Shown: positions 10,283-13,290 of the stretch, piece by piece
How the letters are laid out: every line of letters starts with the position of its first letter
Position numbering within the stretch: the first letter of the stretch is position 1
Origin: Deltaproteobacteria bacterium
GTDB lineage: Bacteria > Myxococcota_A > Polyangia > Polyangiales > JADJMO01
Assembly (NCBI GenBank): GCA_022843175.1
Contig: JALHOE010000017.1
Location: forward strand, 3,091 to 67,090
Reading direction: 5' to 3'
DNA: 64,000 bases
Translations under genes and position numbers: made by a program
The notes under the pieces: model-generated
What the model was told of the DNA's origin: nothing
Database searches by the model: none
The model's input: the letters and a program-made list of their open reading frames with translations, nothing else

Positions 10283-11464
10283 TCACTTCGCGGGCGGCGC
10301 GCTCTTGCTGACCGGGCCCTCGAGCGGGAGCTCGGGGATGCCCTCCATCGTCTCGCGCATCAGGTGCTCGACGACCTTCTTCGCGTCCATGCCGCTGTCC
10401 TGGAAGACCTTCAGCTGGCGGTCGGCGCTGGTGCCGTCCTTGAAGATGCGGTCGACGCCGGTGCGCAGCTCCTCGCGGGTGCCGAGGATGCCGGCCGCCT
10501 CGTCGACGAACTCGAGCAGCTCGGGGATGAGCTCGCGGATCGGCACCTCGGCCTCCTTGCCGAAGTCGATGAACTTCGCGTCGAGGCCGTAGCGCACGGC
10601 GCGCCACTTGTTCTCCTCGATGAGGGCGCGGTGGTAGCTGCGCCACTGCTGGTTGCGCACGTGGAGGCAATAGAGCTGCGCGGTGATCGCCTGCACGAGC
10701 GCGGCGATGAACACGCAGTCCTCGAGGCGCGTCGCCATGTCGCAGATGCGGACCTCGATCGTGTCGAAGAACGGGTGGACGCGGACGTCCCACCAGATCT
10801 TCTTGGCGTTGTCGATCGAGCCGACCTTCACGAGGAGATCGGCGAAGGCCTGGAACTGCGCGTAGCTGCGGAACTCGTCGGGGATGCCGGTGCGCGGGAA
10901 GCGCTTGAAGATCTCGCAGCGGATCGACTTGAGACCGCTCTTGCGACCGAGCCAGAACGGCGACGACGTGGACAGGGCGAGGAGGTGCGGCAGGAAGTAG
11001 CGAATCTGGTTCGCCAGGGCCATCGCCACCTCCTTCTTCTTGATGCCCACGTGCACGTGGAGACCGAAGATGAGGTTCTCGCGCGCGATGTCCTCGAGCT
11101 CGGCGACGAGGTGCGAGTAGCGCTCGTGCGGGACGATGTCCTGCTTCTTCCAGTCGCTGAAGGGGTGGGTGCCGGCGGCGACGATGCGGAGCCCGCTCTT
11201 GCGCGCGAGCATGTCGAGGTGCTGGCGCAGCTCCTTCACCTCGTCGCGCACCTGCGCGACGTTCTGGCAGATGCCGGTGCCGACCTCGACCATCGACTGG
11301 TGCATCTCGGGGCGTACGCGCTCGCGCAGCACCGACTTGCCGCCCTTCTCGAGGAGCTGGCTCACGTAGGAGCGGAGCTCGCCCGTCTCGGGATCGACGA
11401 TCTGGAACTCTTCCTCCACACCGAGGGTGAACTGACCCTCGAGGACGTTGCTCGGCAGCTTCAC
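10283..11464 (-). CDS. carboxylate-amine ligase, YbdK/GCS2 family
   Basis: LGVEEEFQIVDPETGEL is the family's N-terminal signature. Start set to GTG 11464..11462, which has GGGAGG 6 nt upstream and overlaps the stop of the ATP-grasp gene (GTGA). The ORF-track start at 11617 lies inside the upstream gene. Confidence 0.85.
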   Translation of the reverse strand: MKLPSNVLEGQFTLGVEEEFQIVDPETGELRSYVSQLLEKGGKSVLRERVRPEMHQSMVEVGTGICQNVAQVRDEVKELRQHLDMLARKSGLRIVAAGTHPFSDWKKQDIVPHERYSHLVAELEDIARENLIFGLHVHVGIKKKEVAMALANQIRYFLPHLLALSTSSPFWLGRKSGLKSIRCEIFKRFPRTGIPDEFRSYAQFQAFADLLVKVGSIDNAKKIWWDVRVHPFFDTIEVRICDMATRLEDCVFIAALVQAITAQLYCLHVRNQQWRSYHRALIEENKWRAVRYGLDAKFIDFGKEAEVPIRELIPELLEFVDEAAGILGTREELRTGVDRIFKDGTSADRQLKVFQDSGMDAKKVVEHLMRETMEGIPELPLEGPVSKSAPPAK

Positions 11465-12459
11465 TTCGACCCTCCCACCGCGATCTTCGGTTGATCTCCC
11501 GGCGTCGTAGCGCGCAGATGAGGCGGAAGATAGCGCGAGAACCGGTAGTGCTCGCCGAGCGAGCTCCGGCCGTCGCGGGCGACCTTGATGGTGAACTTCG
11601 CCATCTCCTCGACACACCAGCTGAAGTGCGGCTCGAGCACCGACTCCTTGGCCATATCCGGGGCGGGGTTGGTGAAGTCGATCGCGTAGGGGATGCCGTC
11701 GCGGACGGCGAACTCGACGCTGTTCATGTCGTAGCCGAGCGCGTCGCAGATCTTGAAGGCGCCCTCGCGCACCTTCGCCTCGAGCTCCTTGGACATGAAC
11801 CCGCCGGGCGTCACCACGTAGCAGCGGCGCTTGGGGTCGTACTTGATGGGGAGAATCGCCTCACGGCCGATGCAGATGCAGCGGATGTACTCGTCGAAGT
11901 CGATGAACTCCTGGAGCGTCATCACGAGCTGCGCCGACGAGTCGTAGGCGCGCATGAGCTCTTCGAAATTCTTCACCACGTAGACGTCGCGCCAGCCGCC
12001 ACCGTCGGCCGGCTTGAGGATCGCGGGGAAGCCGACGTACTTCGTGATGGCCTCCCAATCGAGCGGGAACTCGAGGTTGCGCAGCGACCGGCTCTTGTCG
12101 ATCCGGTGCATGTAGTCCTTCTGGGGGAGCATCACGGTGCGCGGGACCGCGACGCCGAGCTTGCTCGCCAGCGAGTAGCCGAAGAACTTGTCGTCGGCGC
12201 TCCACCAGAACGGGTCGTTGATGACGTAGGTGCCCGAGAGCGCGGCCGCCTTGAGGTGGAAGCGGTAGTGCGGGATCTCCTGGCTGATGCGGTCGATCAG
12301 CACGCGGTAGGGGCTCTGCCAGTCCTCGGCGCGCGTCTCGCCGATCTTCGCGAGCTCCGCGACCACACCCGTCGACGACGACTCACGGTTCACGCGCTCG
12401 ATGAAGGCCGGCGGGAACGAGTTCTCCATCCCCACGAGCAGCCCGATTCGTTCCGGCAT
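11461..12459 (-). CDS. ATP-grasp domain protein (RimK/GshB-like peptide ligase fold)
   Basis: 332-aa ORF with ATP-grasp hallmarks: FPAILKPADGGGWRDVYVV, MTLQEFIDFDEYIRCICIG, NSVEFAVRDGIPYAIDFTNP. Confidence 0.8.
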   Translation of the reverse strand: MPERIGLLVGMENSFPPAFIERVNRESSSTGVVAELAKIGETRAEDWQSPYRVLIDRISQEIPHYRFHLKAAALSGTYVINDPFWWSADDKFFGYSLASKLGVAVPRTVMLPQKDYMHRIDKSRSLRNLEFPLDWEAITKYVGFPAILKPADGGGWRDVYVVKNFEELMRAYDSSAQLVMTLQEFIDFDEYIRCICIGREAILPIKYDPKRRCYVVTPGGFMSKELEAKVREGAFKICDALGYDMNSVEFAVRDGIPYAIDFTNPAPDMAKESVLEPHFSWCVEEMAKFTIKVARDGRSSLGEHYRFSRYLPPHLRATTPGDQPKIAVGGSK

Positions 12460-12500
12460 AGACGCAGTTTCTCCCTTGGAAGGCCCCCGTATATCAGGTT

Positions 12501-12530
12501 AGGCGTTCGCTGGCGCGCGCGCCTATTTCT
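12501..12530. repeat. REP-like family 1, solo copy
   Basis: aggcgttcgctggcgcgcgcgcctatttct resembles unit 4 of the 4331-4365 array. Its end forms the TAG stop of the GATase gene (12523-12525, minus strand). Confidence 0.75.
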
Positions 12531-13290
12531 CGGGACCCGCCGAGCCCCGGACCGGGGTGCGAGGCTGCCGCACGAAGTTCGTGACGAAGTTGCGGAGCAG
12601 GCGGCGGGCGTGCGGGACGTCGACGACGTCGCGGTGGAGGCTCTCGGGGTCGAAGCCCTCGCCCCGGAGGAGGTCCATCCGCTGCTCGATGTAGCCGCGG
12701 GCGATCTGATCGCTGAACTCTGGATGAAATTGGACGGCGCGGGCGACCGGACCGGCGGAGAAGGCGTGGAGGTCGTCGTGGTCGGCCGTGACGAGCTTGG
12801 TCGTGCCCGGCGGCGGCACCGCGACGTGATCGCGATGCGAGACATTCACCTCGAACGCCTCGGGGAGCCCCTCGAACAAGGGGTCGTCGACGACCCGCCG
12901 CACCACCCGGCTGCCGATCGCGCGCCCGCGCGGGTTCTTGCGGACCTCGCCGCCGAGGGCGCTCGCCAGGATCTGATGTCCGAAGCACACGCCGAGGAGC
13001 GGCACCTGCTCCACCACTGCGCCGCGGAGCCAGGCCTCGAGGCGCGTCATCCACGGCTCGTCGAGCCGGTCGGTGACGCTCGAGGACGAGCCGGTGACGA
13101 TGATCCCCGCGAAGTTCTCGCGCGGGGGGAGGGGCGCCGAGACGTCGCGCGCGTCGAAGGTCGCCCATTCGCCCTCCCACGCGTCGCCGATCGCCTCGCG
13201 GAAGTGGCTGTCGAAGTCTCCGTGGCGCTCTTTGACGAGCGGAACGGTCGTCCCGGTGAAGAGGATGAGGAGGGGCTTCGTCGAAGGCAC
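12523..13290 (-). CDS. class I glutamine amidotransferase-like protein (GATase1)
   Basis: Nucleophile elbow LLGVCFGHQILA and the His-Glu pair in VQFHPEF. 255 aa. Confidence 0.85.
   Translation of the reverse strand: MPSTKPLLILFTGTTVPLVKERHGDFDSHFREAIGDAWEGEWATFDARDVSAPLPPRENFAGIIVTGSSSSVTDRLDEPWMTRLEAWLRGAVVEQVPLLGVCFGHQILASALGGEVRKNPRGRAIGSRVVRRVVDDPLFEGLPEAFEVNVSHRDHVAVPPPGTTKLVTADHDDLHAFSAGPVARAVQFHPEFSDQIARGYIEQRMDLLRGEGFDPESLHRDVVDVPHARRLLRNFVTNFVRQPRTPVRGSAGPEK

Follow-up and report, generated by a model that had tools for sequence, protein, structure and literature searches.

Carboxylate-amine ligases are known from conserved gene neighbourhoods that also encode GATase-like thiol peptidases, and the synthesis of peptide metabolites has been predicted for these neighbourhoods (Iyer et al. 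2008; PMC2588565). The operonic linkage of ATP-grasp and COOH-NH2 ligases has been summarised as well (PMC4431377). Here we analyse a 64-kb stretch of DNA (~69% G+C; contig JALHOE010000017.1; called the window throughout), whose closest relatives in a genome scan are metagenome-assembled Polyangiales genomes (Myxococcota). Three adjacent genes in the window encode a class I glutamine amidotransferase-like protein (GATase), an ATP-grasp ligase and a carboxylate-amine ligase of the YbdK/GCS2 family. For the YbdK family, a solved structure has been available since 2004 but no physiological role; through a conserved operon partner, that role becomes accessible to experiment.

The ATP-grasp and GCS2 genes form the conserved core of a module, and the unit in the window appears, from comparison of the loci, to be a reduced form of this module of Myxococcota (Polyangiales), Bacteroidota and Ignavibacteriota. 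The module is real, conserved and uncharacterised; its parts and its logic are familiar. With a probability of about one half, its enzymes build or turn over, by a non-ribosomal route, a small peptide or peptide amide of the gamma-glutamyl type.

A ligase pair conserved across phyla

A scan of one genome per species yielded 330 relatives of the locus. We analysed the best 80, all from Myxococcota, finding the neighbours by tblastn and clustering all open reading frames (ORFs) of the 80 loci. The GCS2 gene lies directly downstream of the ATP-grasp gene, and in the same direction, in 65 of them. The gap between the two genes has a median of 19 nt, and the 4-nt overlap found in the window recurs in five related loci. 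Because the order is so frequent and the gap so short, the linkage of the two ligases goes beyond chance.

A profile of distant ATP-grasp family members retrieved proteins from Bacteroidota and Ignavibacteriota. In all six informative loci outside Myxococcota, both genes of the pair stand in one co-directional cluster, and they adjoin directly in four; in Mucilaginibacter, a DUF4262 gene lies between them. A GATase1-like gene directly follows GCS2 in four of the six. The gene orders are:

Mucilaginibacter, Arenibacter, Dyadobacter and assembly GCA_052828545.1: esterase-like (235 aa), ATP-grasp, GCS2, GATase-like, 400-aa protein
Melioribacteraceae: esterase-like, ATP-grasp, GCS2, 400-aa protein, without a GATase-like gene
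Assembly GCA_036259455.1 (70% GC): esterase, ATP-grasp, CP_ATPgrasp_2-like, 168-aa protein, GCS2

Compared by BLASTP, the genes of the Bacteroidota and Ignavibacteriota operons are orthologous to those of the Polyangiales clusters around the pair. Identities to the Myxococcota and Polyangiales proteins are 53-59% for GCS2, 45-49% for the ATP-grasp ligase, ~46% for a further ligase, ATP-grasp_4, 36-42% for the 400-aa protein, 29-43% for the esterase and 29-34% for the GATase-like protein; the ATP-grasp protein of GCA_052828545.1 is just 33% identical to that of the window. The value for GCS2 argues for a fixed small-molecule substrate. Conservation of the neighbourhood was the point on which a sequence-only reading of the window, made before this analysis, had staked its three-gene operon. 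The neighbourhood is indeed kept, even across phyla, but the unit that is conserved is the ATP-grasp/GCS2 pair rather than the trio.

Further genes recur around the pair. Polyangiales loci add an S8 subtilase (31 of the 80), an M61 aminopeptidase, a PGM1-like ATP-grasp and a second ATP-grasp paralogue that adjoins an esterase gene. Taken together, the recurrent partners are ligases (ATP-grasp_4, CP_ATPgrasp_2-like, PGM1-like) and hydrolases (esterase, S8, M61), a composition found in peptide-metabolite systems. The circularly permuted, CP_ATPgrasp_2-like gene directly follows the ATP-grasp gene in L090 (8422-9792), L020 (6999-8375), L042, L062, L065 and L067, where it takes the place of GCS2 or stands between ATP-grasp and GCS2. 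The protein of ~400 aa is conserved in the module over three phyla (L087 10798-12024, L088 9097-10272, L089 10144-11337, L041 9712-10920); Pfam, NCBIfam and PDB sequences contain no match to its family, and a comparison with ATP-grasp enzymes returned only a local VLKPxxSxxGxGV...LQ resemblance, with an hhalign probability of 2.6%. In two Bacteroidota-type loci, a gene for a class III aminotransferase comes next after the five-gene operon (L091 11619-12851, L093 11109-12317), and in L093 thioredoxin genes flank the operon (5679-6107 and 12367-12690). An ORF of 68 aa, rich in Cys and His, lies between the esterase and ATP-grasp genes of L090 (6603-6809); none of the other loci examined showed it. 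Neither the window nor, in the form of a recurrent small-gene cluster, the census of the 80 loci revealed a conserved small gene for a tag or carrier. Our literature searches by operon composition and by NCBI product name returned no description of the module; Iyer et al. 2009 (Mol Biosyst 5:1636) was outside their coverage.

Within the window, the three ORFs of the sequence-only reading are present, all on the minus strand, and the translational coupling that it proposed for the two ligase genes is real and can be read directly from the sequence. The features of the unit are:

12523..13290 (-): GATase, 255 aa, first gene of the unit (Pfam and NCBIfam)
12973..12999 (-): nucleophile motif LLGVCFGHQ of the GATase (Cys102), read from the translation
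12715..12729 (-): FHPEF motif of the GATase (His189, Glu191), read from the translation
12460..12522 (-): spacer between GATase and ATP-grasp genes, 63 nt, with GGGAGA ~9 nt before the ATG; too short for a gene
11461..12459 (-): ATP-grasp ligase, 332 aa, middle gene (AlphaFold and Foldseek)
11461..11464 (-): GTGA overlap, shared by the TGA stop of the ATP-grasp gene and the GTG start of GCS2
10283..11464 (-): YbdK/GCS2 carboxylate-amine ligase, 393 aa, GTG start, last gene (Pfam and NCBIfam)
11405..11425 (-): LGVEEEF, the GhExE metal/ATP-site signature, GCS2 residues 14-20, read from the translation
10225..10276 (-): G+C-rich stem-loops directly after the GCS2 stop, without a T-run; likely 3' end of the transcription unit
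13291..13412 (-): non-coding stretch upstream of the GATase start, up to a divergent lipoprotein gene; presumed promoter region

What we observe directly is which genes are present, their catalytic motifs, their tight coupling and their linkage across phyla. To judge by their layout, the GATase, ATP-grasp and GCS2 genes look co-transcribed as one unit. The GTG start of GCS2 matches the position at which its homologues begin. No terminator-like structure separates the GATase gene from the ATP-grasp gene, and the structure after the GCS2 stop folds with a minimum free energy of -32.2 kcal/mol (z = -3.6; none of 200 shuffles folds as well). A scan of the region for a consensus terminator gave no match, nor did a scan of 13291..13412 for a sigma-70-like promoter site. 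Searches for Rfam families, riboswitches and other RNA leaders were negative in the window region and in ten related loci, and none of the three window proteins matches a PADLOC model of anti-phage defence. Neither the 63-nt spacer nor the 4-nt overlap holds a small ORF, so no adjoining gene for a carrier or a substrate peptide is present there.

The genes around the trio are unrelated to it: lipoproteins, an AI-2E family transporter (14140-15369, -), a secreted CAP-domain protein (8118-8831, +), a UvrD-like helicase with a long insert (5507-8044, +) and a membrane-anchored metallophosphoesterase (17261-18424, +). In the nearest relatives, synteny is kept for the metallophosphoesterase gene and for two lipoprotein genes (clusters c15, c18 and c20). 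Farther away, a VgrG-like protein of 928 aa (25846-28632, -), with Phage_GPD (1.3e-54) and a Phage_base_V OB domain, suggests a spike gene of the type VI secretion or phage-tail-like kind, and the products of 48965-51319 (-) and 51347-51688 (-) look like ClpA and ClpS, judged from their N-terminal sequences alone.

The two ligases

The GCS2 protein is readily placed. It covers the whole Pfam model PF04107 (positions 1-291 of 291; 2.9e-64; 217.7 bits, cutoff 21), exceeds the cutoffs of TIGR02050 (305.8 bits, cutoff 176.4) and PRK13515 (519 bits, cutoff 371), and aligns over residues 2-333 with the YbdK structure 1r8g (2.8e-47). These full-length matches bear out its earlier assignment to YbdK/GCS2. 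Within the family, the protein does not reach the E. coli-type model PRK13516 (260 against a cutoff of 425), and it also falls outside the proven GshA branches: TIGR02048 (gshA_cyano) gives 74.3 against 249, and the variants PRK13517 and PRK13518 stay below their cutoffs. Near its N-terminus stands the GhExE signature of carboxylate-amine ligases, as defined in PMC2588565.

The ATP-grasp protein is harder to name. Its sequence matches are weak and partial (CPSase_L_D2 5.5e-5, rimK_fam 2.7e-10, LysX 7e-10). Against the RimK family (TIGR00768) it scores 40.1 bits where the cutoff is 143.4, and against LysX/ArgX (TIGR02144) 38.4 bits where the cutoff is 275.6, and no gene for a LysW-type carrier adjoins it. 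No GSH-S_N, GSH-S_ATP or gshB model of Pfam or NCBIfam matches it at E<=0.01. An AlphaFold model built on 32 homologues (pLDDT 86.6, pTM 0.84) gives 554 Foldseek matches in the PDB at E<=1e-3, of which the best 50 are ATP-grasp ligases. Ddl, ArgX, LysX and RimK come up at E 1e-14 to 1e-12 with TM ~0.6 and 13-18% identity, and the model is equally far from D-Ala-D-Ala ligases, ArgX/LysX, RimK, a microviridin cyclase and PruB; GshB is absent among the best 50. The motifs LKPADGGGW, LQEFI, NSVEFA and IDFTNPAPD are invariant among close homologues. By predicted fold and motifs, then, the middle gene product can be assigned to the ATP-grasp superfamily of ligases. The label "RimK/GshB-like" of the sequence-only reading holds at the level of this superfamily and fails at the level of families, because the scores against named families are low and the structural relatives are equidistant.

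The ATP-grasp protein belongs to a separate, unnamed family without a Pfam model. An exhaustive search found 305 representative clusters (at 50% identity) at E<1e-30 and 1002 at E<1e-10. Among the matches listed, 120 per search, the homologues bear no precomputed Pfam domain, with one exception, and are labelled mostly as "hypothetical" or generically as "glutathione synthase/RimK-type". The window protein is the GCS2-linked paralogue (A) of this family, with 64% identity to GCS2-linked members and 45% to the esterase-linked paralogue. Exact-sequence look-ups of the window ATP-grasp protein and of a protein with 100% identity to the window GATase (P0121) returned no record.

Many distant members of the ATP-grasp family carry long C-terminal tails of low complexity (P0267, P0290, P0304, P0274 and P0247, as well as the proteins of L087 7001-8227 and L089 7001-8164). 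The tails are made of repeated, AT-hook-like KRRGRPAK units or are Lys/Ala/Pro-rich and histone-H1-like; a few are strongly acidic. Their composition suggests binding to nucleic acid or another polyanion. The window protein has only a short tail, which is not basic. A search of the family for Rosetta-stone fusions found low-complexity tails, and no extra enzymes, on its long members. One candidate, the 647-aa ATP-grasp+GCS2 protein P0258, is no real fusion: here, high-GC DNA was translated through a frameshift into a run-on product.

A putative peptide metabolite and its rivals

The peptide reading assigns the three enzymes the following parts. The YbdK-type GCS2 would spend ATP on activating a carboxylate, most probably the gamma-carboxylate of glutamate, as an acyl-phosphate, and would then join it to an amino group. 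The translationally coupled ATP-grasp ligase would form a second amide bond on the same small molecule, and two successive ligations of this kind, each through an acyl-phosphate, would follow the two-ligase logic of GshA/GshB. The GATase might hydrolyse a gamma-glutamyl amide, as do GGP1, PuuD and the gamma-glutamyl hydrolases of the peptidase C26 family; alternatively, working as a glutaminase, it might supply the GCS2-type ligase with ammonia from glutamine. What we infer in this scheme is which substrates are used, in which order the steps run and what the GATase does. Within the GATase fold, sequence cannot separate a glutaminase from a gamma-glutamyl hydrolase. For the ligase there is precedent in YbdK, for which gamma-Glu-Cys ligase activity is cited in PMC2588565, and the same paper offers precedent for carboxylate-amine ligases beside GATase-like thiol peptidases. 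The sequence-only reading had proposed a glutathione-like peptide or a peptide tag, which is plausible.

We see a slim chance that an undescribed and widely distributed small peptide is made and turned over by the pair in concert with the partners that it has in other loci: the esterase, the GATase-like hydrolase, the 400-aa protein and the extra ATP-grasps. Its producers would be Polyangiales, Bacteroidota and Ignavibacteriota. It could, for example, be a new thiol of low molecular weight or a gamma-glutamyl peptide-amine conjugate that is central to physiology, a role that is hinted at by the identity of GCS2 across phyla.

A different view is that the module modifies a protein or a peptide tag. 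The ATP-grasp ligase would then add residues to a protein C-terminus or side chain, like RimK with S6 or LysX/ArgX with LysW; GCS2 would make an isopeptide bond, as PafA does with Pup, and the GATase-type thiol hydrolase would remove the modification, as Dop does. PafA and Dop belong to the same ligase superfamily as GCS2 (PMC2588565). The families nearest in sequence to the ATP-grasp protein, rimK_fam and LysX, act on protein C-termini, as do several of the top structural matches (ArgX-LysW, RimK-RpsF); the model is matched equally well, however, by D-Ala-D-Ala ligases, enzymes that act on small molecules, and the cutoffs of RimK and LysX are missed by a wide margin. The basic, AT-hook-like or KAP-rich tails on many orthologues would suit binding to the ribosome or nucleoid, but the window protein is without such a tail. 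Nor does a conserved small ORF or carrier adjoin the window genes or recur in the loci surveyed. On balance we regard tag modification as unlikely.

The ligase pair mirrors GshA/GshB, and the GCS2 family includes bona fide gamma-Glu-Cys ligases. The module might lead, by way of non-orthologous enzymes, to glutathione itself or to a closely related thiol of low molecular weight (a glutathionyl-amine, for example), with GCS2 as the gamma-Glu-Cys ligase, the ATP-grasp protein as the analogue of glutathione synthetase and the CP_ATPgrasp_2-like protein as a third ligase, like glutathionylspermidine synthetase. The placing of CP_ATPgrasp_2-like genes between or beside the pair, in the six loci listed above, favours this idea, as do the thioredoxin genes around the L093 operon and the class III aminotransferase after the operons of L091 and L093. 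Against it, the ATP-grasp protein matches no GshB model at E<0.01 and does not have GshB among its best 50 structural matches, the score of GCS2 with the cyanobacterial GshA model TIGR02048 is 74 where 249 is the cutoff, and no sequence feature points to cysteine as a substrate. We judge this route improbable.

The third enzyme, the GATase, bears on how far the unit reaches beyond the pair. The window protein matches Pfam GATase (PF00117; 1.2e-18; 67.9 bits, cutoff 22.8) and, more weakly and in an overlapping position, Peptidase_C26 (3.3e-7; 30.7 bits, cutoff 20.5). The NCBIfam model PRK09065 covers it at positions 2-239 of 242 with 231.6 bits (cutoff 205). Cys102, His189 and Glu191 are in place, so the catalytic triad noted earlier is intact. 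Its solved relatives include the plant gamma-glutamyl peptidase GGP1 (9k7i, 1.8e-13), TM1158 and 3m3p, along with other orphan stand-alone GATases.

This PRK09065-type gene stands upstream of the pair in the six nearest loci only (L001-L004, L006 and L023). A different GATase1-like gene, encoding 275-316 aa, lies directly upstream of ATP-grasp and in the same direction in 39 other loci, with a median gap of 60 nt. Its family barely matches Pfam GATase (4e-3) and has PRK09065 as its best NCBIfam match; an alignment of its members contains an invariant Cys (ICHSF) and an invariant QFHPE motif. By hhalign, the family aligns with the window GATase at E 3e-5 over 161 columns that include the nucleophile and the His-Pro-Glu motif. 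In all, a GATase1-like gene of either type is found upstream and co-directional in 45 of the 80 Myxococcota loci. The clade with the PRK09065-type GATase lacks the other gene. Since the PRK09065-type gene sits where the GATase1-like gene sits elsewhere, and the two never occur together in that clade, the simplest reading is that one GATase1-type enzyme was replaced by a related one. The linkage of the GATase that was claimed at the outset is thus confined, for this particular protein, to the six nearest genomes, with a distantly related GATase1-like family in its place elsewhere. A GATase-type partner is nevertheless a recurrent feature, as the GATase1-like gene is present in 39 other Myxococcota loci and four Bacteroidota-type ones.

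Several observations weigh against the peptide reading. Some concern the GATase. In L004, a co-directional gene for a PAS/histidine-kinase/receiver hybrid (~3900-5837, +) splits the GATase gene from the ATP-grasp gene; in L006 these two genes are ~1.6 kb apart. Homologues of the window GATase with 48-53% identity occur in unrelated contexts, next to nucleotidase, glycosyltransferase and CBS genes and with no ligase near, and about one-third of the Polyangiales loci, Sorangium and Pendulispora included, have the pair without a GATase. Others concern the rest of the module. The chemistry of the ATP-grasp ligase cannot be read off, because the protein fails the tests for RimK, LysX and GshB and its solved neighbours are equally distant. 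A role in small-metabolite synthesis leaves the long, basic AT-hook-like tails unexplained. Finally, the 64-kb window has no gene for the esterase, the 400-aa protein or the other ligases that belong to the full module, and for this reason we take the window unit as the minimal, three-gene form of a module of five to six genes.

The points on the GATase also speak for a narrower unit, made of the pair only, in which the PRK09065-type GATase would be an unrelated housekeeping amidotransferase that came to lie upstream by chance in one small clade. The linkage of the window GATase by itself, with six loci here and unrelated contexts elsewhere, would suggest such a bystander. The sensor kinase gene of L004 and the gap in L006 fit with it too. 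In the window, however, the gene is co-directional with the pair and 63 nt upstream, with no terminator-like structure in between, and it holds the exact position of the GATase1-like gene of the 39 other loci, a gene that its own clade lacks. We give little credence to a chance neighbour. That the GATase might be a fragment of GuaA (GMP synthase), the other refuter named by the sequence-only reading, is excluded, as PRK09065 covers the 255-aa protein end to end, making it a complete stand-alone enzyme, guaA_Nterm scores 68.6 against 172 and PRK00074 58.6 against 400, and an ATP-pyrophosphatase domain is lacking; the "GMP synthase" labels on its homologues stem from source annotation alone.

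Should a defined small peptide be what the module makes, this would be a new and widespread bacterial metabolite, with a cofactor, a redox buffer, an osmolyte and a signal as candidates, in lineages whose small-molecule biology is poorly known: soil and aquatic Polyangiales, Sphingobacteriia, Cytophagia, Flavobacteriia and Ignavibacteria. It would also give a function to the unnamed ATP-grasp family, to the PRK13515 branch of the YbdK family and to the family of the 400-aa protein.

Comparison with known systems

In the operons of PMC2588565, the carboxylate-amine ligase belongs to a separate "new CAL" family and not to YbdK/GCS2. Systems that conjugate Pup-like or peptide tags differ from the window unit in another way, as no small conserved tag or carrier gene lies beside the window ligases. 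RimK, which poly-glutamylates S6, and LysX/ArgX are the best named sequence relatives of the window ATP-grasp protein and are among its best structural matches; yet the protein scores far under their cutoffs, shares 15-18% identity with them and has no S6 or LysW-like partner gene.

GGP1, PuuD and peptidase C26 enzymes that go with glutamate ligases (PuuA/PuuD, EgtA/EgtC) share with the window unit a Cys-His-Glu enzyme of the GATase fold encoded with a carboxylate-amine ligase. The window unit resembles these pairs, in which a gamma-glutamyl group is put on by one enzyme and taken off by the other. By contrast, PuuA is of the GlnA type rather than GCS2, EgtC is a class II amidotransferase, and the window unit is without the oxidoreductases of the catabolic gamma-glutamyl pathway.

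E. coli YbdK (1r8g) and its Salmonella homologue (1tt4) are of the same family as the window GCS2, which bears the GhExE signature. The window protein differs in meeting the cutoff of PRK13515 and not that of the E. coli-type PRK13516. At the E. coli ybdK locus, neither an ATP-grasp nor a GATase partner is known to us, and to our knowledge the physiological substrate of YbdK is not known.

GshA/GshB, including the GCS2-type GshA of plants, cyanobacteria and haloarchaea and EgtA, resembles the window unit in that a GCS2 and an ATP-grasp amide ligase are encoded together. The window ATP-grasp protein is no GshB, however, and the window GCS2 belongs to the uncharacterised PRK13515 branch rather than to the proven GshA branch. 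The full module, moreover, adds up to three more ligases and two hydrolases to the pair.

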